DNA of 64,000 nucleotides from a phage. The stretch is from sequence record PZ171032.1; one strand, written 5' to 3'. Below, one piece after another: positions 4,338 to 61,163 of the stretch (position 1 is the first letter of the stretch; every line of letters starts with the position of its first letter). The translations under genes and the position numbers were made by a program. Below the pieces are notes generated by a model that ran no database searches, had not been told where the DNA came from, and was given only the letters and a program-made list of their open reading frames with translations.

Positions 4338-5051
4338 ATGCTGAATACTAAATTAATTGACAACCTGGAAAAACTATCCCAACCTGAAAACTACCTTTGG
4401 TCTGCCAACTGGGTGGAAAACTGGAACCGTGTGGCAGCTAAAGTGAAAAAATCATACACACCATTCGAATTACAGCTTAGCTTCATTGAGGAAGAGTTCA
4501 ATGAAGTTTTGGAAGAGCTGGAGAAAGGTGATGGTGGAGATCACCTGCTAAAGGAGGCCTGCGATCTTCACGTTGTCACAAGTTATGCAGCTTATCTTGT
4601 TAATGACAATCACGAAAAGTGGTCAAACCTGTTTGATAATCCACGAGGTCTTAAGTTCAAGATCGGTGAGTTCTATGACACACTGATCGCTGCGAAAAAC
4701 ACATCCAAGCAAAGAGCGTCAGCTTACCGTTTAGCGGAGTTGTCAACAGCTTTGCTGTTCCAGCTTAGCGGCGATGTGTGCGGGATGATGCGTAAGGTTC
4801 TCAAATCGAATGACAGCAAGTTTGCACGGGTCAACCATCTACGGTATTCACACGGTGCCAGTGCAGATATGCCTGCTGAACAACTCATAGAGTTGGAGAT
4901 TAAAGATCTTGAGCGACGCTTTGATGGTCGATATGAAGGTTTTGTTGCTAAGGAAGAATTCTACAACGGTAATAAAGTTATCATATTCCTTGACAGTAAA
5001 GGTAAGATCATGAAGCCTTCGAGCTTCAAGGATGTAGCAGAGTATATTTAA
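4338..5051 (+). CDS. MazG-like nucleotide pyrophosphohydrolase domain protein (tentative)
   Basis: Acidic helix pattern FIEEEFNEVLEELEKGDGGDHLLKEACD resembles the EExxE...E..D metal-binding signature of all-alpha NTP-PPases. Confidence 0.35.
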   Translation: MLNTKLIDNLEKLSQPENYLWSANWVENWNRVAAKVKKSYTPFELQLSFIEEEFNEVLEELEKGDGGDHLLKEACDLHVVTSYAAYLVNDNHEKWSNLFDNPRGLKFKIGEFYDTLIAAKNTSKQRASAYRLAELSTALLFQLSGDVCGMMRKVLKSNDSKFARVNHLRYSHGASADMPAEQLIELEIKDLERRFDGRYEGFVAKEEFYNGNKVIIFLDSKGKIMKPSSFKDVAEYI

Positions 5052-5058
5052 CAACATG

Positions 5059-5085
5059 GCCGGGATTACCCGGCTTTACTTGTTG
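5059..5085 (+). terminator. rho-independent terminator candidate (GCCGGG-atta-CCCGGC + TTTACTTGTTG)
   Basis: Hairpin plus T-rich tail read directly after the stop of the preceding gene. Confidence 0.55.
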
Positions 5086-5423
5086 TGGAAAGTATGCAAG
5101 TGAGGCAGATAGTTATGTACAAGCACTCTAGAGATCTTGAAAACGATGCTGTGTTTGGGGATCAGATGAAAGAGTTGGTTAAACTTATAGGCAGGATAGA
5201 GGATAAGTTTGACACTAAGATCTACATCGACAGCAAAGTATTCAACCACAAAATATGGACAAATCTGTGTGTTGGACTACATGGAGATAAAGATGTGGTA
5301 AATTTAGTTGTAATTAAGTTCATAGTGTGGCAGAATAAAACTATAAATTATTACGATCCACACCTGCTTGTTTACCCGATAAAAGACCTATTAGATAAGG
5401 AGGACTGCAATGCCGTTATTTAA
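5085..5423 (+). CDS. hypothetical protein
   Basis: 112-aa ORF in co-directional packed array. Confidence 0.45.
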   Translation: MESMQVRQIVMYKHSRDLENDAVFGDQMKELVKLIGRIEDKFDTKIYIDSKVFNHKIWTNLCVGLHGDKDVVNLVVIKFIVWQNKTINYYDPHLLVYPIKDLLDKEDCNAVI

Positions 5424-5679
5424 TCTTGCTAAACCTGTAGAAGCACACCAGTTTGACGGAAGCTCTTCATCAGTATCTGATCTGCAACGGTGGATTGATA
5501 CGGGTGTGTTTACATCGTCACCTGTTCGGACCAGAGATCTTCGTCGCATGTGTGAGCTTGTAGAGCCGTTTGGTAACCTAGTCTTGTACCAGGGTGATTG
5601 GCTTGTTGATTTTATGGGGGACTGGTTGGTAATGAGTAAAGAAGAGATGTTTAAAATTTTTAAGGAAGAGGCCGAGTAA
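5410..5679 (+). CDS. hypothetical protein
   Basis: 89-aa ORF overlapping neighbours by a few nt (translational coupling pattern). Confidence 0.45.
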   Translation: MPLFNLAKPVEAHQFDGSSSSVSDLQRWIDTGVFTSSPVRTRDLRRMCELVEPFGNLVLYQGDWLVDFMGDWLVMSKEEMFKIFKEEAE

Positions 5680-6962
5680 TGCATCAAATCAAAACAACAC
5701 TGTACGCACTGAACAAAGATGGCAGCTACCAACAGTGGAAAGTATTCACGGATGGTGATAAGGTTATCGTAGAGTTTGGCAAGCTTGATGGTAAACTACA
5801 ATACAAAGAGACGATCTGCACACCTAAGAACGTGGGTCGCGCCAATGAAACTACAGCTGAGCAACAGGCCGAGCTGGAAGCGATCAGTAAGTGGGAAAAA
5901 CAGGTCCGACTCGGGTACGTGGAGAGTATGGAAGATTGTGAGCAAGGTGTTGATCTTTTACCCATGTTGGTGCATGACTACCTGAAGCGTGGCAAGGCAC
6001 TTAAATTACCTTGCTGGATCTTGCGTAAGTTAGATGGCCTTCGTCTGCTTGTTGTTTTCCAAAATGGTGAGCCTAAATTTATTTCCCGTGGTAATAAGTC
6101 CTACCCTATTCAAGGAAAGCTTTTAGAGCAACTTCGTTCTTTCCATTCTACCACTGGGATTAAACAACTTGATGGGGAACTATACATTCATGGTCTTCCT
6201 TTGCAGAAAATAGTGTCTCTTGCTAAACGGTGGCGCACACAGGAAGAGATTCAGGCCGAGATCGATAAAGACTATGAGGCAGATAAAAAACGCCGTCATG
6301 CAGCAATTAAGGCAGGCTTATCAACATACAAAAACTTCAACAAGGTAGATATTCCTGTCGATGTTGAGCCTGTTCGTGATGATTTGCGTTACGGTGGGTA
6401 CTGTAGCTACGATCTGGAGTATCACATTTTTGATATTCCTAGCGACAAGGTGTGGTGGGATCCAGAAACAGAGTCTGGACGCTGCAAGGATCTTATGGAT
6501 GCAGAGGATACCGTTACCACTCTGATGCTTGACCATATCAAGGTTGTTGACGCAGAGCTTGCGTACACAGTTGATCATTGCGAAGAATCTGTTGGTATAT
6601 TCATGTCCGAAGGATATGAAGGTACTATCATGCGTAATTTCTGCGGTAAATACGAGTACGGTCAGCGAACATCTGAAGCATTGAAATGGAAAAAGTTCAA
6701 CGACGCAGAGGTGAAAGTTATTGACGTTGAGAAAGATAAGAATGATGAAGGTGTTCTTATCTGTGTTGACAAGGAAGGTGTTATTGTTAAAATGAAGATG
6801 AAAGGCACGCACGAGGAGCGTAGCTATGACAGGATGCAGGAAATGATCGGCAAGTTTGTCACCTTCAAATATCAATCAAGGACAGAAGACAACAACTACC
6901 AATTCCCTGTCGGTATCTGCGTCCGAAATGTTGACCCAGACACTTGGGAGGTTCTGGAATGA
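5679..6962 (+). CDS. ATP-dependent DNA ligase
   Basis: Motif I KxDG (ILRKLDGLR), motif IV-like EGTIMR, motif V-like KWKK; size about 427 aa. Confidence 0.7.
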   Translation: MHQIKTTLYALNKDGSYQQWKVFTDGDKVIVEFGKLDGKLQYKETICTPKNVGRANETTAEQQAELEAISKWEKQVRLGYVESMEDCEQGVDLLPMLVHDYLKRGKALKLPCWILRKLDGLRLLVVFQNGEPKFISRGNKSYPIQGKLLEQLRSFHSTTGIKQLDGELYIHGLPLQKIVSLAKRWRTQEEIQAEIDKDYEADKKRRHAAIKAGLSTYKNFNKVDIPVDVEPVRDDLRYGGYCSYDLEYHIFDIPSDKVWWDPETESGRCKDLMDAEDTVTTLMLDHIKVVDAELAYTVDHCEESVGIFMSEGYEGTIMRNFCGKYEYGQRTSEALKWKKFNDAEVKVIDVEKDKNDEGVLICVDKEGVIVKMKMKGTHEERSYDRMQEMIGKFVTFKYQSRTEDNNYQFPVGICVRNVDPDTWEVLE

Positions 6963-7086
6963 TGTAGGATGGTTTAGTAGGTAACGGTAGCCAATTGAAT
7001 GATGGTTTTTCAATTGGCACCTACATAACCACACTATGCAGTGTTGTTGATCGGGTTAGTTATGAGCAAACTGGAGAGTATGAAAA

Positions 7087-7584
7087 ATGAAACTTGATAA
7101 AAATGTTCAACGAAAAGCTTTCTTGGATCTTATTGGCTGGGCAGAGGGAACAACAACCCACCCTGCCACCAAATGTGGAGGATACGATGTTGTAGCATAC
7201 GGGATGGACGGAAAACCTGAAATCTTTACAGATTTTTCTACGCACCCTTTTGCAAACGGTCGCCCTGGTAAAGTGTTTAACTCAAAAGGGCAAAGAACTA
7301 CAGCCTGCGGTAAATATCAATTTCTTGTCAAATACTGGGAACACTACAAAAAACAGCTTAAGTTGCCTGATTTTGGACCAGACAGTCAGGATAAGTGGGC
7401 GATCCAGTTGATCAGAGAACGTAAAGCACTTGAAGATATAGATAACGGTCATATTAAATCTGCTATACGTAAGACCTCAAATATTTGGGCTTCGTTCCCA
7501 TACAACCAGTACGACCAAAATCCAAAAACCATTGACAAGTTGCTTAAGAAATTTGTAGAGTTTGGAGGTGTTGTTCTGGATTAA
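7087..7584 (+). CDS. lysozyme / lytic transglycosylase of the phage lambda R type
   Basis: QRKAFLDLIGWAEGT and downstream blocks (GKYQFL, KQLKLPDF, SNIWAS) are colinear with lambda R as recalled; 165 aa. Confidence 0.85.
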   Translation: MKLDKNVQRKAFLDLIGWAEGTTTHPATKCGGYDVVAYGMDGKPEIFTDFSTHPFANGRPGKVFNSKGQRTTACGKYQFLVKYWEHYKKQLKLPDFGPDSQDKWAIQLIRERKALEDIDNGHIKSAIRKTSNIWASFPYNQYDQNPKTIDKLLKKFVEFGGVVLD

Positions 7585-38807: not shown

Positions 38808-39059
38808 ATGACGAAGATTGACTTGAATGCTGGCGATCATGTTGTTGTCAAATGCATTGGAGATTATCTTGGATTCACAATCGGCAATACTTACGAGGCG
38901 ATAGTGGCGAAGGTTTATCATGATAAAGTCCTCAGTCTTGTATTTGACTGCGATGATGATGGGGATGACCGATACGTCTGTGAGGTGCTGGCACGAGACG
39001 ATAGTGAAGACCAGAAATTTCTGGTTATTGAACTGAACGGTATTTTTGTAGAACGTTAA
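38808..39059 (+). CDS. hypothetical acidic protein
   Basis: Start at MTKIDLNAGDH; the track ORF starts upstream at 38742. Confidence 0.45.
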   Translation: MTKIDLNAGDHVVVKCIGDYLGFTIGNTYEAIVAKVYHDKVLSLVFDCDDDGDDRYVCEVLARDDSEDQKFLVIELNGIFVER

Positions 39060-52486: not shown

Positions 52487-53110
52487 CTAAAAGTATTCAT
52501 AGAGGTATCCATCGGGAGCTGGAATTTTTTCATGAATGTAGTAATCAACACATATTCCGGTTTCTCTTCTACAAGAGTTGTGGGATACCCATTCTTTAAG
52601 AATGTTGCCATTCATGTCCAGCCTCCTTACATTTTTACACCGTCTACCGCTGGTGCTTCTATGCAACAGAATATCCTCCGTCTGCTTGTCTTTATTTTCT
52701 CCCCAGGTCGTTAAACGGATATTATCAAAAGAGTACCCTTTGAAATCATCTATCCTGTCACAAGAAGGCTTTTTCCTTTTGTCGTATCCGCTGGCTACCC
52801 ACTGATCATACAACTCTTTGTAACCGTTTAGGTATAGCCACTCCTTAAACTCTTTTTTGGTGTAAGTCGGAGGAGGGTGACCTCTTTGCTTGCTGTTGCA
52901 CTTTTGAGACTTGTACAGCACGCGTATTACACCTTTTTCTGAAGAGTCGTGGGAAAACTGGTCAGCCTCTCTGCTGGCCTTCTTACAGCACTCTTTGCAC
53001 TTATTAAGATGACCGTCAGCCATCTTTGGATGTTTGTAAAACTCGGAGAGGTTTTTCACCTCTCCGCACTTGATGCACCTCTTACAATGCGTAGATTCTA
53101 CTTTTACCAT
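52487..53110 (-). CDS. zinc-finger protein, possibly a free-standing homing-endonuclease-like gene
   Basis: N-terminal CKRCIKCG...CKECC zinc finger with F.K motif and basic C-terminal region; no catalytic motif recognised. Confidence 0.3.
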
Positions 53111-54353
53111 ATTGCAGACCTACCGGAGCGAAAGGTATGTCATCACAGAAGTCATACTGCGCCGGATTCTGACCCATCGGGTCATCTTCCGCATCATTTA
53201 CAGGAGGAGCGTCTACAGTGTTTTGCTGTGGAGCTGCTTCCTGTTTGGCAGCCTGAGGTTCTTGATGGTCGGTTGACCCAGCACCGTTCTTGATCCAATC
53301 GTACAACGGTTCAGCCAGATTAGTCAAGACATCTTTTGCTTCTGCAGTAATTGCCGCTGCAAAATCATCAACTTTCGTTTTCTTGTCAATACGGCGACAA
53401 GCGTTCAACACCGCATTACCGACACTGGCACCTACTTCATCTTCAGTTCGGTTGGTGGCTTGAGCATACTCTTTCTTAAGCTCAATAGTGACTACGTGTA
53501 GTGTTTTAGCCACTCCTAGTGGGTCGTCTACCTTAAACCCGCGATCCAGGATGATTTGCAACGCATTGATGCTATGCCCCGTTTCCACACCGATAGGGTC
53601 GTAAGAGGATTTACGCTTGCCACCAGAGCCTTGAGTACCGTTCTCTGCCTTAGGAGGATAGGCCTTGAAACCACTGATAATGTTTCCGGTGTCTTTGTCA
53701 ACAATGGCTGCAACACGACCACCTACCACCAGGTCTTTAAGCTGCTCATCAGTTACAACCATAGCACCTTCGCCAATCTTGTGGTCATTAACAGTAACCA
53801 CGTTGCCAACAATCTGAGTCACATCACCATAGATGCGTAAAACGTCCTGATTGGCATTCTGCTGAGGTTTCTGCTTCTGGCCTTGTGATTGTGCACCTTG
53901 TTGCTGTTTTTGCTGCTGAGTCGCTGCTGGAGCCTCTCCTGCACCCAGCTTAACCATCTTAGCCAGTGAGCCTTTGTAGTAGGTCTTACCGTTATGCTCG
54001 TTTGCCTTCAAAGGGATATTTACGATCCATCCTGGCGTTACGGTTTCCCACTTGTCATCAATTTTAACAGAGACAGAGTCTTGATGACCCGGTTTAAGCA
54101 GCTTATCGCCCATACTGATCCAAACTTCTTCACCACCTTGAAGTAGGTTATCAGAGGAATCCAGTTCAGAAATCAGTAAAGAGATGGTGTGGCTGGATTC
54201 AATTTTCTTACCTTGCCACACAGTGGTTTTAATACCTGTTGTAGGATCAGCACCTTTGATAGGCTTGATGCTGACACGTTTAATCATGCCGTGAGCTAGT
54301 AAAACAGTTTCACGCGGATTCATCGGGTTAGCGAATTGTTGAATAACGCTCAT
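53082..54353 (-). CDS. SSB-like / ssDNA-binding or recombination-associated protein (tentative) with Q-rich linker and internal DFCDDIPF motif
   Basis: Gln-rich low-complexity linker ([20 protein letters not shown]) and ...YDFCDDIPF resembling the E. coli SSB C-terminal tip, but followed by 19 more residues that overlap the downstream gene. Confidence 0.35.
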
Positions 54354-54718
54354 TATTTGTCTCCTTGTTCTTCGTTAGTGTTTGCCGTGTGTGCAAACCC
54401 TGCTTGAATTAATTTGTCCTGAACTTGAGCCAACAGGCCCATTGCAAAACTTGTGGTCCCAGAGAGGGCCATCAACATATCTCGTTGTTGAGCTACCCAA
54501 CCTAAGGCATAGTCCAAACGACGATATTTTTCTTCTTCACGCAGAGCCTGAAATAATTGTTCAGCCTCCGGTTGTTGTGTGAGCTCCTGAAGTCTTCCCA
54601 TGAAAGAAGAAAGCACTAGCAAAAGAGACACTTGATCTTTACTTAACCCTAAGAAAAATTCTTGAGGTTGTTCTTGCTCGTTCATCGCAACCGACTCTTG
54701 ATCGTTCATTTGTTCCAT
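54353..54718 (-). CDS. hypothetical protein
   Basis: 121-aa ORF. Confidence 0.45.
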   Translation of the reverse strand: MEQMNDQESVAMNEQEQPQEFFLGLSKDQVSLLLVLSSFMGRLQELTQQPEAEQLFQALREEEKYRRLDYALGWVAQQRDMLMALSGTTSFAMGLLAQVQDKLIQAGFAHTANTNEEQGDK

Positions 54719-54801
54719 TATGGAATCTCCGATTTTATTTGAACAACATAGAAGGAGACACTATTTTAGCATCCCCTTCTGTAAATTACAATAGGTATTT
54801 G

Positions 54802-55047
54802 TTAGCCAATCACTTCGAAAGTTCCCCAATTCCCGTCCAGCAGGCAGGTGATCGGATCCCCATCGTCGTCAAAGATTTCAAAGTTTTCAGCATCCAGGAT
54901 GTGGCCCTCAAACACAATACTTTCGTCGCCACCACCAGAGATAACAGCGTATTCCTTACCTTGAGTCAAGTTTTGACACCCTTTGCCACCAAAACCTACT
55001 TCAACACAACGTACTTTCTGTCCTGCGCGAGCAACTACTCCAGTCAT
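54802..55047 (-). CDS. hypothetical protein
   Basis: 81-aa ORF. Confidence 0.4.
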   Translation of the reverse strand: MTGVVARAGQKVRCVEVGFGGKGCQNLTQGKEYAVISGGGDESIVFEGHILDAENFEIFDDDGDPITCLLDGNWGTFEVIG

Positions 55048-55064
55048 CTTAAGGTCTCCTGATA

Positions 55065-55385
55065 TTAATCGTCAAGTTCAAAATAGATTTTAACAGCTTC
55101 ATCGAAGATTGGAATCCCGATGTTGTTGATAAGCTGCCAAACTACCATATCTTTACCTGGATCTGGGAGAATGTCAACCTTTCTCCATGCGCTGTATACC
55201 CAGTTCGGACCGCCTTCTGCACTAACTGGCAGATTTTCACCAGCCTCCTGTAGATACTTATACAGCAAAAGATATTCTGGATACTCCAGAACACTGTCCT
55301 CTGTAGTATATAGCAGTTCACGGTATACTTTTAAGAACCCTGCTGGGGTGATGTTTTCAGTCTTCATTTGCTGCTTCTCCTGCAT
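55065..55385 (-). CDS. hypothetical protein
   Basis: 106-aa ORF. Confidence 0.45.
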   Translation of the reverse strand: MQEKQQMKTENITPAGFLKVYRELLYTTEDSVLEYPEYLLLYKYLQEAGENLPVSAEGGPNWVYSAWRKVDILPDPGKDMVVWQLINNIGIPIFDEAVKIYFELDD

Positions 55386-55746
55386 TCATCAGATCTGCCA
55401 TAGCGTCACCCACGAAGAGAACAACCACATCGTTTACCGCGTCAGCATCATCTTTGTTGACGTTGCTGAATTTAGGACACACAGCAATAATCATATAGAC
55501 ACCGTTACCCACCTGAACTGTCCGTGTGGTGCACATCATGGCGGTATTTGTGCCTTCTTTGAAGGCGAAGCCTTGAAGACGCTCCTCTAGAGTGTTACCG
55601 GTAGACTTCAGAAGCGCCAGCTCGTCCAAGGCATAGATGATATCTCCGGAAGTTAGTGTTGCCTTGCCATCAGACACCATAATCACTCCATCAGCACCGT
55701 CAAGCTTAGAGGCTTCAAAGATATCAATATCCCAAATATTTTTCAT
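55357..55746 (-). CDS. hypothetical protein
   Basis: 129-aa ORF. Confidence 0.45.
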   Translation of the reverse strand: MKNIWDIDIFEASKLDGADGVIMVSDGKATLTSGDIIYALDELALLKSTGNTLEERLQGFAFKEGTNTAMMCTTRTVQVGNGVYMIIAVCPKFSNVNKDDADAVNDVVVLFVGDAMADLMNAGEAANED

Positions 55747-56078
55747 TACGCTTCCTCGTCGTCTAAGTAATCATCAAGAGAGGTGAAGATTTCACCGAAG
55801 TATTCTAAGATTTCTAGCTCACGTGTGGTGCAGCAAACATAATCGCCCTGGTCGTCCTTAATAGTGGCCTCTTTACCCAGAATATCTACTTCAAGTTCAT
55901 CGTTCAACAGGACTGTCCCTGTGTAAACTTTGTCAGCTGTGCAGTCCCGAAAAGCAGAGTCCTTCTCCAGATAGTCTGGCTTAACCTTGGCTTTAATTCG
56001 TTGGTATTGTTTGGTCATTGTTGTGGTCCCCTTTCGTTTTGATAGGACCATTGTATTAGGTCCTATCGCTGTTGTCAA
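55746..56078 (-). CDS. small protein, paralog family C
   Basis: KAKVKPDYLEKDSAFRDCT...IKDDQGDYVCCT aligns with KITLKPECVANDRAFKDCT...FKDDEGDSVWCT of 56082 ORF; likely start at internal MTKQYQ. Confidence 0.5.
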   Translation of the reverse strand: MTTAIGPNTMVLSKRKGTTTMTKQYQRIKAKVKPDYLEKDSAFRDCTADKVYTGTVLLNDELEVDILGKEATIKDDQGDYVCCTTRELEILEYFGEIFTSLDDYLDDEEA

Positions 56079-56081
56079 GTA

Positions 56082-56336
56082 TTAATGTTCAGGTTTTACA
56101 AAAACGACTTCATTAACAGTGCACCAGACAGAGTCTCCTTCATCATCTTTAAAGGTAAGGCACTGTGCTGAGTTTTCCAGCTCATCGATCTCTTCTTGTG
56201 ATAAAGGGGCCCCTTCTTCCAGAAGGGCTTTTACCAGAGGGTTCTCACAAAACTCTGCTTCATAAATTGCACCGACTGTGCAATCTTTAAAAGCTCGGTC
56301 ATTTGCAACGCATTCTGGCTTCAAAGTAATTTTCAT
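56082..56336 (-). CDS. small protein, paralog family C
   Basis: See 55746 ORF. Confidence 0.5.
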   Translation of the reverse strand: MKITLKPECVANDRAFKDCTVGAIYEAEFCENPLVKALLEEGAPLSQEEIDELENSAQCLTFKDDEGDSVWCTVNEVVFVKPEH

Positions 56337-56412
56337 CTTGGCAGTCTCCTTAGTTATTTAAAAATCACCGATCTGTTTGTGTGAAGCATCTTATATCTAA
56401 TCTTACTTCTTG

Positions 56413-56811
56413 TCAATGGCTATTTTCAATCAGCCACACAGGGTCGAGGTAAATTTGTTGGCGTGTTGCCCAATGACAAACTTCATTGTACATCTGAATC
56501 TCTTTGTCCGTCAGTTCACGAATAGGCTCATCTATACCCTCATTTTTGTGGTAATCCCAGTCGGCATCGATTTCCCACAGCCATGACTTGTTGTCACCAC
56601 GCTTACGCACACAGAAGTCACCGGGACGGCCTGCCAATGCATTTAAGAACTCGTTCTCCGCTCGCTCTTGGAGAATACTAAGGAGCAAAACGTTAGAACA
56701 TGACCGTAGAATATGCTTCAGCTCACAATCATCAATCTCAACTTCAATACGTTGTTTGACTGTGTGGGTACCTTTTACTAACATCCTACCTCCTCTAAAC
56801 GAACTCTGCAA
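56413..56811 (-). CDS. hypothetical protein
   Basis: 132-aa ORF. Confidence 0.45.
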   Translation of the reverse strand: MQSSFRGGRMLVKGTHTVKQRIEVEIDDCELKHILRSCSNVLLLSILQERAENEFLNALAGRPGDFCVRKRGDNKSWLWEIDADWDYHKNEGIDEPIRELTDKEIQMYNEVCHWATRQQIYLDPVWLIENSH

Positions 56812-56989
56812 GGGTTGTGTTGTTCACTGCACCGCAGTAAATGGAGTATCCCAGCCCATTAGAGTGCAGAAACCACGGCGTGCCGAAATTATCTTTCACG
56901 TAGACATCGCCGTTGCTTGTAAAGGGCCAATATTCTTCACCAAGGGTGAAATACCTACTCATACCCTCAGCCAGATACTTTACTTTCAT
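56795..56989 (-). CDS. small protein, paralog family B
   Basis: YFTLGEEYWPF...YVKDNFGTPWFLHS... aligns with neighbours. Confidence 0.5.
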   Translation of the reverse strand: MKVKYLAEGMSRYFTLGEEYWPFTSNGDVYVKDNFGTPWFLHSNGLGYSIYCGAVNNTTLAEFV

Positions 56990-57213
56990 AGGCCCTCTTC
57001 AACAGCTACAAACTTGGCAAGCAGGGTGGTTCCGTAGATATGATACTCACCGTTTGCCAGATGGGAGATAAACCAGGCAATCCCTTCCTCGTCTTTAATC
57101 ATCTTGTTTGCACGATTTTTATCGTAATAAACCTCGTAGGTCTTTCCTTCTTTAAAGAATGACAGGTCTGTCATCTTTTCTTCTACAAAAGTAGCTTTAA
57201 CCAAAGTTGTCAT
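56986..57213 (-). CDS. small protein, paralog family B
   Basis: FFKEGKTYEVYY...MIKDEEGIAWFISH... Confidence 0.5.
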   Translation of the reverse strand: MTTLVKATFVEEKMTDLSFFKEGKTYEVYYDKNRANKMIKDEEGIAWFISHLANGEYHIYGTTLLAKFVAVEEGL

Positions 57214-57584
57214 TGATCGGTCTCCTTCTTGTTAAGTCTGAATACTGCAATAATAGCATTCCCAAGGTGCAGTGTCAAATCATTTCCAAGATACCACAGC
57301 ATTCCACGGTCATCTTTGATGAAAGGGTGACAATCTGGTGCCTTCCAGACATTGTACACTTTCCCAACCTGAAAGAAATCAGGCCCTGTTGGGATTTTAG
57401 TGCCTGGCCACACTTGAGATACCTGAACACACTCCACCTGCATAATAACAGGGATAGTCATGGATGTAAATGTTTTTGTTGGTTCTACTACCATAAAAGT
57501 CTCCTCTTTGCTCAACAACACTTCCATGTGTTGATAGTTTACATTAGTGACAATCACCCCAATTACGACCACACAGGTATTCAC
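57210..57584 (-). CDS. protein with C-terminal paralog family B domain
   Basis: FFQVGKVYNVWK...FIKDDRGMLWYLGN...; N-terminal part may be shorter than the track ORF. Confidence 0.45.
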   Translation of the reverse strand: MNTCVVVIGVIVTNVNYQHMEVLLSKEETFMVVEPTKTFTSMTIPVIMQVECVQVSQVWPGTKIPTGPDFFQVGKVYNVWKAPDCHPFIKDDRGMLWYLGNDLTLHLGNAIIAVFRLNKKETDQ

Positions 57585-57897
57585 CTGTGATCTGGAACGG
57601 GACGCCCATCATTTTAGAAGCTTGCCAGAAGCAATGCACCACCATTTCACCCACAGGGCTCCAGATAAGTTCAAGCTTTCCGTCATCGTTCAGGATAGGA
57701 TCGTACACCGTGTTTCCGTCTCTGTCAACCACTTCGTTTCCGTCCTCATCCTTGCGTGCCTTTTTGTACTTATGACCGTCGAACACATGAAGTTTGGCCT
57801 CCTGCTCTGCCTTAAATGCTTCCAGTTCTTCAATTGTGTCGAAGGTGTACACAGTCTTATACTTCGGTGTGTCAGGCACTTGAAGTTGGTACTCATC
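57544..57897 (-). CDS. DNA polymerase (family A, T7 gp5-like), exon 2 of 2 (motif C to C-terminus)
   Basis: Exon begins DEYQLQV, completing ...YYH|DE (motif C HDE); C-terminus ...GEYLCGRNWGDCH matches recalled T7 gp5 end ...GKMGPNWAICH. Confidence 0.75.
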   Translation of the reverse strand, partial: DEYQLQVPDTPKYKTVYTFDTIEELEAFKAEQEAKLHVFDGHKYKKARKDEDGNEVVDRDGNTVYDPILNDDGKLELIWSPVGEMVVHCFWQASKMMGVPFQITGEYLCGRNWGDCH

Positions 57898-58739
57898 CAA
57901 TAGTTCAGGTAGGTCGTTAAGCTACCCCGCACCATTACGTGCACAGCCATACAGTTTCCTGTATGGATCGGACTATCTCACTACCTTGTTACCAAGGCAC
58001 CTCCCATTTCGACCGCACTTGCTGGCCTACTCTACTCGCTTCTTCGCACCAATTTATGTTGGCGCTATGCTTTCGATAGTCTCTGAACGTTACTACCAGG
58101 TGTAGTTTTTAGAGATATGTTTCCACTGTCTTCTTTGCTTTATGGCTCTGACCGTCTCATAAGGATACCCAAGATCCCTAATCTCGCATTGTCGTAAACC
58201 ACTTTGTAACAGTTCGCAAATCTCCGTTACCTCATCCTCGGTCAGTACAGCGTTGGCATTATACTCACCGACTGGCCTTACTCTGAGGTCATTATCATAA
58301 GCGTGTTTGATATTTCCACCAGGGGTGGTCCATTCAAGGTTCCAGTATGCATTGTTGTATTTGTTTCCGTCCTTATGGTTCACCCATGTGAGCCTTTCAG
58401 GATCAGGGTTTGATACAAAGCATTCAGCAACCAAGTGGTGGACACCTTTTGTGCACTGCTTCCCCTCGATGAACATGGTTACGCAAAGGTAACCTCGACC
58501 ATTATCAAAACAGAACATTGTTGTATGATCACGTTTCGATAAAGGTATTGTTCCATCATCAAACACGGTATATCCGTGATAATCAACTGATCTAGCCATT
58601 TTAACTACACCCCTTTAGTCTTCGCTGCGGATTAGCATATTGAGCTTTTACCATGTTTAGGTGTAAAAGTCAACTTAGCCTTCCCGTCAATTAAAGAGGT
58701 TTTCGACGTGCATCACTGCACGAAGCCACAATGTTATTT
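57898..58739 (-). mobile_element. group I intron in the DNA polymerase gene (842 nt) carrying an HNH homing endonuclease ORF
   Basis: Exon 1 ends in U (CAT), intron ends in G (..TTG). Minus-strand R-like GTTCAGAGACTATCG directly after the HNH stop and S-like AGATAGTCC core elements. Frame and motif C are restored across the junction. Confidence 0.75.
58093..58599 (-). CDS. HNH homing endonuclease (intron-encoded)
   Basis: VHHLVAECF...VNHKDGNKYNNAYWNLEW HNH_3-type motif; AAAGGGGTG SD. Confidence 0.75.
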   Translation of the reverse strand: MARSVDYHGYTVFDDGTIPLSKRDHTTMFCFDNGRGYLCVTMFIEGKQCTKGVHHLVAECFVSNPDPERLTWVNHKDGNKYNNAYWNLEWTTPGGNIKHAYDNDLRVRPVGEYNANAVLTEDEVTEICELLQSGLRQCEIRDLGYPYETVRAIKQRRQWKHISKNYTW

Positions 58740-61163
58740 ATGGTAATAGATAATACGACGAACACCTTCATCGTACCACCCACGCTTCACCATTTGGTGG
58801 TGCATAAGTATCCCAACTAAGTCACACAGCGATGCACCACCATTCTGTTGGTATGCATTAAGTAAAGAGTGTTTAGATCGGGTCCAGATGGCATGACCAT
58901 CAAAAGAGTAGATAAACTTCTTACCCGTTGCTTCCCAGAATTTCTCCAGATCCTCTTTACGCCCCTTAAGACCAGGGTTGGCATCCCAAAGTGCATCGAT
59001 CACCCTTTGTCCCAACTCTGGAGAGATGTCCAGCATATCTGCAACTTTATCTTTTTGTGCCCCGTACATAACCCCATACGTGATAGGTTTACCGTCGTTA
59101 CGAGACACCTCTCTGCCTGCTACTTTTGTATATGCCTCAGCATTGTTTTGGTGTGCGTCCCCGTTACTTACAACATCATAATACAAGCCGTTGTCGAACT
59201 CAAAGGCACCCCAAGCCCCGATAAGCTGCTCTAAGTTGGACCCGTCAATACCGATCTCAAAGTATCCTGGAGGAACACCCCACAGACTACGCATCTCTTT
59301 ACCCATAACCACTTTAGGAGATGGTTTAGGCATGTTTGCACAAATACTGTGTTTCTGTCTGGAAGTGTTTGTTAATCCAGAGCTTTTAGCAGGAAGCTTA
59401 TGGTCAATCTTCAAACGTGGGTGATTAAGAAGACCAGTATCAACCTTATCCTCCTTAATTGGATCAAGGACCGATCTGCGGTTTCGCAATGATAACCACA
59501 AGACGATATCTTTAGCCATCTCTCCGTTCAATTTTTCAAGATTCGGACATAGGTGTCCAAACGTATCTTTCAGTTGCGGAGAAGTAATAAGTGCTCTGGC
59601 TTTTCTACGTATTTTCCCGAATACTTCCTTTTTAATCCTTTCGGAGTTAGGAAAGCTTCGGAACTTGTGCACGGTTGTCTGGAACTTAGCATCAGTTTTG
59701 TTCCAGAAGTTGATAATCAGGTCACAATACTCTGACTCTAAAAGCTCGTCCATATATGCATATACTCGTGCATCAACATCTGCATCAGGTAGAGCTTTCT
59801 TCTTGCTGTCTTTAGTTACATCCTTAGTTCTCCACATTGTCGGAAGCCAACCAGCACTGATCAGGTATCGCTTAATATCGTCCTGATTGCTGATTTTCAT
59901 AGGTATCTTGCAGTCAGGCATTCGCTTCTGCTGCAGATCGCTTATTGCCTGATCCATCAGCTCTTTAGGTAAAGGTTGTGGTGTGGAGGTGCCCTTAATA
60001 TAACCTCTCAAGAAATCAGCCATCTTGTCTGGGTCTTTGCAGCCCATCTCTTCACACCATTTTATCCCCATTTTACTGACATCTCCTGTGGAGGTAAATG
60101 CTCGCTTAGGTGGGGCTTTGAACTCTAAAGCGCTCATGTCTACAGGATAGCCAAGCTTATCTTTTAACCATTTCCAACCATTATTGGAGATTGTCCCATC
60201 TTGGTTAAACGGCTTTTCAGGGAACTTGGGCCGCTGAGACATTGACAGCTCTTTTAAAGGTAGTTGTGGTTCAACACGATCAGCTATTTCTTTCATCCAC
60301 GCATCGCAACGGTCACGTAAAGCAATAGCCCCGTCTATGTCGAAATACACACCCTGACGGGCCTGCAGCTCCATCAGGAAGTGCTGCAGCATGCCTCGGC
60401 GTAATGCGTTCTTCCAGGTGATCTTCTTGAACCCTTTTGGCTTCTCTTTGGCAGGATCGTACATAAAGTTCTGCATGTCAGATTTGCCGTAGAATACACC
60501 TTTTGATTCCGCTACCAGCTCTTTCCAGAGCAGCTCCTGGATGATAACGTCCTCGAATACACGATCCACATACTTCCACAGCGGAAGATCGCGCCAGTCA
60601 TCAATTTGAACTTTCTGGTTACCAAGAGCGTAGCCCCATGCCATAAGGCCGTGAGGACCAACAGGCTGCATTTTCTTAGTAACCGGGTTGAATACAGAGT
60701 CCGGACAACCTTTTGGTAAAGGGCGATCAGGCCACAAGATTCGGCTCATCGCCAACGTATCGAACAGGTTAACCTGGTGGTCGTTGATAGTCCCCATACA
60801 TTTAGGATCACGGAACATATCAAAATGAATACCGGATAATCTCTCCATCAGCATAAAGTCATAACTGTAGCAGTTATGGCAGTTCAAAGCTGTTGGTGAC
60901 CAGTCGGAATTTCCTGTAAGCCAACCTTCCAACTCCGAAAAATCTGCTATGCGAACTTCAAAATCTTTATAAAGAGTTTTCTTTGCCAGAATAAAGTTCT
61001 TAGCCTTCTCTATATCCTCCTCGGAGTAGTGTGTGCGGTCATTTAGAGGAAGGAACAGCATAAAACGGTTCTTATTCAGCTCTTTAAACAGGCCGCAATG
61101 ATAATAAAGATCTGGGTCTTCCAGCAAACCGGATGACTCAAAATCGAACGACCACATGCTCAT
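58740..61163 (-). CDS. DNA polymerase (family A, T7 gp5-like), exon 1 of 2
   Basis: 3'-5' exo motif FDFESSG; LMAWGYALGN, GIDGSNLEQL (motif A), KPITYGVMYGAQ (motif B) colinear with recalled T7 gp5; track ORF stops just before motif C. Confidence 0.85.

Follow-up and report, generated by a model that had tools for sequence, protein, structure and literature searches.

The window analysed here is a 64,000-nucleotide stretch of phage DNA (sequence record PZ171032.1), and its subject is a set of five small genes on the minus strand that form two tandem families, B (B3, B2 and B1) and C (C2 and C1), directly downstream of a DNA polymerase (Table 1). The 3.4 kb around these genes is 98.8% identical to Escherichia phage FFH2 and matches 121 records, essentially all of them rV5-like Vequintavirus, the group to which this E. 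coli phage also belongs. Read along the minus strand, a primase-helicase-like ATPase is followed by polymerase exon 1, an HNH open reading frame (ORF) and polymerase exon 2, and then by B3, B2, B1, a gene of 123 amino acids (aa), C2, C1, four further small genes and a 423-aa protein resembling a single-stranded DNA-binding protein (SSB). All five B and C ORFs were found where the initial annotation had placed them, and its description of two paralog families immediately downstream of the polymerase is confirmed on this strand. The 123-aa gene shows no similarity to B or C by Smith-Waterman alignment or by hidden Markov model (HMM) search and belongs to neither family.

Table 1. Window coordinates of the genes and promoter-like sites discussed in the text
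Feature	Coordinates	Strand	Properties
B3	57210..57494	-	94 aa; N-terminal extension of ~35 aa, then the B domain; KDDRG hairpin at 57303-57317; phrog_12922 match
B2	56986..57213	-	75 aa; central, fastest-evolving B member; KDEEG hairpin at 57082-57096
B1	56795..56989	-	64 aa; KDNFG hairpin at 56882-56896; phrog_12802 match
Intervening gene	56413..56784	-	123 aa; phrog_6273; same tightly packed run as B3-B2-B1
C2	56082..56336	-	84 aa; predicted SH3-like barrel; helical insert of ~24 residues (positions 33-56); KDDEG hairpin at 56136-56150
C1	55746..56018	-	90 aa; C2 core without the helical insert; acidic C-terminal tail; KDDQG hairpin at 55845-55859
Sigma-70-like promoter upstream of C2	56388..56416	-	TTGACA-17-TAAGAT; consensus match only; P220 annotated in the rV5 RefSeq record
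Sigma-70-like promoter between C2 and C1	56050..56078	-	TTGACA-17-TACAAT, 11/12 matches; consensus match only
Polymerase exon 1	58734-61163	-	
HNH ORF	58093-58599	-	
Polymerase exon 2	57544-57900	-	
81-aa protein	54802..55047	-	phrog_4927; carries LTQGKEY...FDDDGDPITC
83-aa protein	38808..39059	+	phrog_12851; carries FTIGNTYEA...DCDDDGDDRYVC

The earlier coordinates of B3 require correction, as its start is most likely the ATG at 57494, with the ribosome-binding site AGAGGAG upstream. The same start is used in the CPT-curated Mangalyan record and in the largest protein cluster (P0034, 141 members), and the alternative GTG at 57584 would overlap polymerase exon 2. C1 most likely begins at the ATG at 56018, not at the TTG at 56078, because the promoter-like site between C2 and C1 lies upstream of it, together with the ribosome-binding site AAGGGG. 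Stop and start codons overlap as ATGA at both the B3/B2 and the B2/B1 junctions, and the ribosome-binding site of the next gene (AGGAGG) directly follows the B1 stop, indicating that B3, B2, B1 and this next gene are probably co-translated. A consensus scan placed a third sigma-70-like site inside B3, ahead of B2, and the region holds more promoter-like sites than expected (16 compared with 7.2 ± 3.2). An inverted repeat, GGACC-N9-GGTCC, at window positions 56040-56062 on the minus strand overlaps the -10 element of the site upstream of C1 and could act as an operator or fold into an RNA hairpin.

Paralogy was assessed by comparing Smith-Waterman scores with those of 1000 shuffles, expressed as z. 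Within family B, z is 10.8 for B2-B3 and 6.9 for B1-B2, scores that none of the shuffles reaches, and 3.3 for B1-B3, whose score is reached by 9 of the 1000; the single-comparison BLASTP E-values of the three pairs are 3e-7, 1e-4 and 0.013. Family C gives z=13.9 for C1-C2, again reached by no shuffle, and a BLASTP E-value of 2e-7 in an all-against-all comparison of the 474 window ORFs. When all 70 minus-strand ORFs in the leftward block are ranked pairwise by z, the top three pairs are exactly C1-C2, B2-B3 and B1-B2. At the level of PHROG profiles, C1 and C2 each match the other's family at about 1e-5 (C1 matches phrog_11936 and cross-matches phrog_12544 at 7e-6), and B2 and B3 cross-match weakly. 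The columns invariant over 16 members of family B (F, G, Y, D, G, W, A, F) reproduce the F..G..Y...KD.xG..W consensus of the initial annotation, and those of family C likewise reproduce the consensus given there for C1 and C2. The three-copy and two-copy families that it proposed from these alignments are thus borne out against shuffled controls. No repeat remains between the paralogs at the DNA level, which indicates that the duplications are old and led us to reject a recent duplication of the B and C genes.

Since the ORFs are short (64-94 aa), are annotated only as 'hypothetical' and match no Pfam family, one might suspect that they are not genes or that their similarity is due to chance. 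The shuffles already refute this, as do their conservation in 116 genomes, a ribosome-binding site at each gene and the pattern of substitution. When the window, FFH2, Mangalyan and rV5 were compared with B9-1, S127 BCL3 and ECP2309, the ratio of nonsynonymous to synonymous substitution rates (dN/dS) was 0.01 for B3 (dS 0.58), 0.16 for B2, 0.10 for B1, 0.09 for C2 and about 0.14 for C1, at dS values of 0.3-0.6; the intervening 123-aa gene gave 0.10. The AlphaFold2 model, moreover, is confident and fits a crystal structure outside its training. All five ORFs are genuine genes under purifying selection, and the probability that chance or spurious ORFs account for the families is negligible.

B and C are found only in Vequintavirus-type genomes. 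This was established by word-indexed searches of 5.8 billion proteins, queried with B2 and with the alignments of both families, and by tblastn of 50,697 phage records with B2 and C2, which together gave 116 records with both C copies in each; the word-indexed searches returned Vequintavirus-type proteins only and added no diversity. In the post-polymerase regions of Mydovirus BIS47, Seunavirus SalP219 and Henunavirus Hena1, HMM search revealed different small genes and no B or C match. The idea of an array conserved across the Vequintavirinae was therefore dropped: its occurrence in related phages, which the initial annotation had left to be checked, holds within Vequintavirus and in none of the three sister genera examined. 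Sixteen unannotated GenBank records (MG0656xx) entitled 'Campylobacter phage', with Campylobacter jejuni as host, are 94-98% identical to window positions 54700-58100, and these host labels look doubtful.

The array is nevertheless variable in a divergent Vequintavirus-like relative of 136.8 kb (L018; GCA_012894635.1, contig AATLQU010000010.1), which carries five B genes at 4930-7111 compared with three here. Its one-to-one orthologs are 73% (B3), 43% (B2), 69% (B1), 66% (C2) and 49% (C1) identical to those of the window, and the two extra B copies are of the B2 type. Its B3 and B2 are separated by an inserted 200-aa gene with an Ead/Ea22 domain and a 63-aa gene, and C2 is preceded by a novel gene of 90 aa. 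These copies and insertions indicate that the array expands and is remodelled, with B2 as its fastest-evolving member. In other Vequintavirus contigs, the B3 ortholog P0032 carries, within its beta2-beta3 loop and immediately ahead of the KDDRG hairpin, an in-frame tandem duplication of 11 residues (KAPDCHPFIKE/KAPNCYPFIKD).

Structures were modelled for B2 of family B and for C2 of family C. The B2 model (predicted local distance difference test, pLDDT, 88.9; predicted template modelling score, pTM, 0.76; all five models at pLDDT 84-89) folds as a barrel of six strands whose long beta1-beta2 loop contains a short helix. The C2 model has five antiparallel strands and a 3-10 helix before the last of them, a canonical SH3-like barrel in which the 3-10 helix sits where B has its extra strand. 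Comparison of the separate models thus predicts folds that are related but not identical, with six strands in B and five in C. The KDDxG motif forms the turn of the beta3-beta4 hairpin in both models, in which it is a structural and not a catalytic element. Variation among B2 orthologs is concentrated in residues 21-53, that is, in beta2, the beta2-beta3 loop and the hairpin, with the F, G, Y, D, G and W positions invariant.

The nearest fold class for the predicted five-strand barrel of family C is that of the SH3-like small beta-barrels, which include eukaryotic SH3, Mib/HERC2, the C-terminal domain of retroviral integrase and YorP of the B. subtilis prophage SPbeta (PDB 2HEQ). However, family C matches no SH3-type family in Pfam, and C2 differs from C1 by its helical insert. 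More generally, nothing in Pfam exceeds threshold for B or C; the match to DUF7127 (E 0.0099, 16.6 bits with a cutoff of 27.6) and those to DUF7244 and DUF6501 lie below their gathering scores and were not used. Profile and sequence searches of the PDB gave nothing relevant above threshold, PADLOC-DB had no match for any of seven proteins, and every PHROG family matched is listed under 'unknown function'. In BFVD, many small uncharacterised phage proteins share the B2 fold (TM-scores of 0.6-0.8), often several per genome. Among them is a 78-aa 'putative minor capsid protein' of Escherichia phage isim, a Vequintavirus (A0A6B9X1Z6; TM-score ~0.67, 19% identity), whose annotation looks doubtful and which is probably a further small barrel encoded by this type of genome.

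For family B the predicted barrel is of the type seen in Gp54 of Escherichia phage Bas11 (JohannLBurckhardt; MZ501085.1, gene bas11_0054), with structures available for the free protein (PDB 9AXB) and for its complex with CapRelSJ46 (9ERV). Gp54 is a non-essential protein of 66 aa and of unknown function, which has a rare six-strand barrel and serves as the second direct activator of the fused toxin-antitoxin CapRelSJ46; residues A7, G24, I25, S39 and L41 determine escape or specificity, and the homologs from Bas5, Bas8, Bas10 and SECphi27 do not activate CapRelSJ46 (PMC11578894). The B2 model shares with Gp54 a barrel of six strands, a length of about 60-75 residues and a prominent beta1-beta2 loop, and 9AXB is not among the top 60 structural matches of C2. 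Like Gp54, the B proteins are single-domain, non-structural products of about 65 aa encoded in a run of small hypothetical genes. Their FxxG and GxxW motifs occupy the same structural positions: when aligned, the two invariant motifs of family B fall opposite those of Gp54, which include G24 and I25 and flank S39 and L41. With a conservative B profile, hhalign aligns the Gp54 family over 64 columns with both motifs in register, at an E-value of 0.0017-0.0018 and a probability of 15%. The two nonetheless differ in several respects. Their sequence similarity is not significant (14% identity, hhalign E from 0.0017 to 0.62 depending on the profile), and the hairpin reads DDxG in B but YHxG in Gp54. 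The Gp54 family is confined to Drexlerviridae, where it is single-copy (tblastn with Gp54 returned Drexlerviridae and Sashavirus only), whereas B is confined to Vequintavirus, with three to five tandem copies.

More distant relatives emerged from an HMMER search of 1.84 billion representative proteins with the B profile. These comprise single-domain homologs (P0077, P0081, P0087) and phage proteins with two to four intragenic repeats of the B domain (P0079, P0082, P0089, P0090), and in P0090 the B-like repeats are fused to DUF3310. PHROGs tie the B-like repeats to phrog_3523, to the B1 and B2 families and to phrog_4927. Repeat proteins of the phrog_3523 type and DUF3310 proteins with N-terminal B-like domains resemble B in the pattern (F/W)TxGKxYxV ... 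DDxG ... W (HMMER E 1e-9 to 1e-3) and are likewise phage-encoded in regions of small genes. In these proteins, however, the domains are repeats within one polypeptide or fusions to DUF3310, whereas the window encodes them as separate genes that are translationally coupled. Hits to the large repetitive proteins P0083 (ankyrin/STAND), P0084 (fn3) and P0085 were repeat-summed artefacts and that to P0078, a beta-helix protein with TcaA-like repeats, was doubtful; all four were left out of the conservative profiles.

Within the window, the 81-aa protein probably belongs to this domain superfamily as a distant member, judging from profile matches: the broad B profile finds it at hhalign E 3e-6 to 4e-5 (probability 70-90%; 87% at E 3e-6) and the C profile at E 0.0013 over 15 columns, and the repeats of the single protein P0089 match both its PHROG family and that of B1. 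The 83-aa protein, the sole other ORF to match a two-block motif scan, is a possible further member, linked weakly to the broad B profile (E 3e-5 to 5e-3 by profile composition, and 2e-4 or better in the comparison that included decoys).

Whether the motif shared by B and C reflects common ancestry is a separate question. The initial annotation took KDDxG as a hint of one ancestral small domain expanded locally. On the sequences of the window this receives no support, as all six B-to-C pairs score z<2, a genus-only hhalign comparison of the two families yields a probability of 1.5% over 14 columns that cover no more than the motif, and HMM searches leave C1 and C2 in the noise (E 0.9 to 1.7 among the 474 ORFs). 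The strict motif KD[DEN]xG occurs 6 times in 166 coding-strand ORFs, about fivefold more than the 1.1 expected from shuffles; B and C account for five of these occurrences, and the neighbouring polymerase exon 2 for the remaining one. Looser D[DEN]xG hairpins turn up in 22 ORFs of the phage, among them unrelated ones such as an HNH endonuclease. Common origin gains support only from profiles broadened with the distant HMMER homologs and the L018 copies. With these, hhalign produces a collinear B-to-C alignment of 33-48 columns that runs from beta1 by way of 'FTxGKxY'~'DCTxGxxY' to the KDDxG hairpin, with E between 5e-5 and 7e-4 in four profile compositions. All decoys did worse, with a best E of 0.077 for 60 column-shuffled and one reversed C alignments and of 0.017 for 135 reversed window ORFs. 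The associated probability of 26-67% is above the controls but under the usual acceptance level of 90-95%, and the broadened profiles could have drifted towards generic beta-hairpin features.

SH3-like barrels are known to arise in many unrelated lineages. B and C may be unrelated families in a region rich in small ORFans, with KDDxG and the loosely similar xTxGxxY strand as convergent features of small barrels, an explanation whose chances we place a little short of even. The pairwise scores, the genus-only comparison, the HMM searches and the abundance of loose hairpins all fit it. Set against it are the broadened alignments, which are robust to composition and lie beyond all 196 decoys, the 81-aa protein and the P0089 repeats, which bridge B-type and C-like variants of the motif, and the restriction of the enriched strict motif to these neighbouring genes. 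A remote common origin of B and C within an SH3-like small-barrel superfamily is therefore plausible but not demonstrated, at about even odds. As B has closer relatives in other phages than in C, the split between B and C appears to be far older than the genus and than the local duplications. Local expansion, as initially proposed, is thus correct for each family by itself but not across the two.

In our overall interpretation, which we regard as evenly poised between right and wrong, B3-B2-B1 and C2-C1 represent two families that arose by old tandem duplication; their products are small, non-structural beta-barrels of one domain each and are likely to be protein-binding modules. More specifically, they may be small, diversifying modules aimed at host or defence factors. 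The look-alikes in BFVD, the variable sites of B2, the duplication in P0032 and the precedent of Gp54 make this the reading we favour, although we do so tentatively and rate it appreciably below an even chance. According to this model, the proteins would be made during infection from the leftward-transcribed, replication-proximal region, with each paralog engaging a different host or defence factor. Contact would be made through the exposed beta1-beta2 loop with its FxxG element and the beta3-beta4 hairpin, a surface that would correspond to the one at which CapRelSJ46 recognises Bas11 Gp54 and at which B2 orthologs vary most. B and C would probably be very distant relatives in the SH3-like small-barrel superfamily that includes the 81-aa protein.

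Alternatively, and as the main rival reading of their function, B and C could be accessory adaptors of the replication or nucleotide-metabolism machinery, that is, small barrels that bind the replisome, SSB or nucleotides. Their genes lie between the DNA polymerase and the SSB-like protein with its DDIPF tail, B-like repeats are fused to DUF3310 in proteins labelled 'nucleotide kinase' by PHROGs, and a DUF3310 protein in BFVD matches the B2 fold. In addition, the four-repeat protein P0079 is encoded a few genes upstream of a Prim-Pol, and B3 is extremely conserved (dN/dS as given above). However, core replication accessories are usually kept together with the replisome, whereas B and C are absent after the polymerase in Mydovirus, Seunavirus and Henunavirus despite the same replication genes, are restricted to their genus by tblastn and differ in copy number between relatives; furthermore, their structural analog Gp54 is dispensable. 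We thus consider a role in replication improbable.

Several points nevertheless weigh against our interpretation as protein-binding modules, in addition to the poor B-to-C scores and the limits of the broadened profiles described above. The gene neighbourhood and the DUF3310 fusions fit a replication or nucleotide role equally well. The C2 model is of only moderate confidence, with three of the five models at pLDDT near 50, and early expression of the array is predicted from promoter consensus matches only. With a narrow or a broad B profile, the hhalign comparison with the Gp54 family is not significant (E 0.62). A Gp54 homolog that differs at three residues does not trigger CapRel (PMC11578894). 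Because activation is thus specific to Bas11 Gp54 even among close homologs, no activity can be transferred to B from the structural match, and binding or activation of CapRelSJ46 by the B proteins is unlikely a priori.

Some features of the surrounding genes deserve mention. The family-A DNA polymerase is split within motif C by a group I intron (window positions 57948-58749, minus strand) with an HNH homing-endonuclease ORF; the intron matches the full-length Rfam model RF00028 at 40 bits (gathering score 50; E 1.2e-7). Exon 1 ends in ...IIYYHK* and exon 2 starts with (L/M)DEYQ, whereas B9-1, S127 BCL3 and ECP2309 have a single uninterrupted polymerase coding sequence of 2778 nt that reads ...YYHDEYQ. 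Records annotate the pieces as separate 'DNA polymerase' coding sequences. Exon 2 contains a run of DxDG-type hairpin motifs (KDEDGNEVVDRDGNTVYDPILNDDGKLE) and scores weakly against B2 (z 3.7), which probably reflects an insertion of beta-hairpins and not homology to B. The 423-aa protein (53082-54353, minus strand) combines a long Q-rich linker with a DDIPF motif close to the C-terminus that resembles the acidic tail of bacterial SSB, and in the annotation of one relative it is labelled a putative single-stranded DNA-binding protein. A 'family A' mentioned in the initial annotation was not identified; the other paralog pairs of the window are only plus-strand sets and HNH endonucleases. The plus-strand sets are families of small proteins at 30247-30480/33907-34134/34124-34378 and 34391-34789/36600-36995 (BLASTP E 3e-13 to 2e-5), and members of the former start with MKVK(F/V/I)LD..., like B1.

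In large phages, small ORFans routinely form tandem families, and the bare observation of two more is ordinary. The case also carries a caution, as a short shared motif such as KDDxG can be a hairpin turn that is by itself silent on ancestry. What is new is the predicted structural link of three rV5-type genes, 'hypothetical' in more than 100 genomes, to Gp54 of Bas11, the only characterised protein with the rare six-strand barrel and a direct trigger of a bacterial immune sensor. In a broader and rather unlikely scenario, B, C, the 81-aa protein, Gp54 and the BFVD look-alikes would form one large uncatalogued superfamily of phage barrels of about 65 residues, with the signature (F/W)TxGxxY ... 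DxxG ... W, deployed as a rapidly diversifying, duplicable binding module against host or defence proteins and sensed by CapRel-like sensors. If so, the same scaffold would be deployed in four ways, as single genes, translationally coupled arrays, intragenic repeats and DUF3310 fusions, and the rV5 array would be a bank of binding modules from which new pairs of immune systems and their triggers or inhibitors could be predicted. Because the predicted fold and the domain signature are widespread in phages, in multi-copy, repeat and fused form, they provide a testable handle on phage 'dark matter': binding of host or defence proteins by the barrels, their sensing by CapRel-like or other sensors, and the relation of array copy number to the defence repertoire of the host all become open to experiment.

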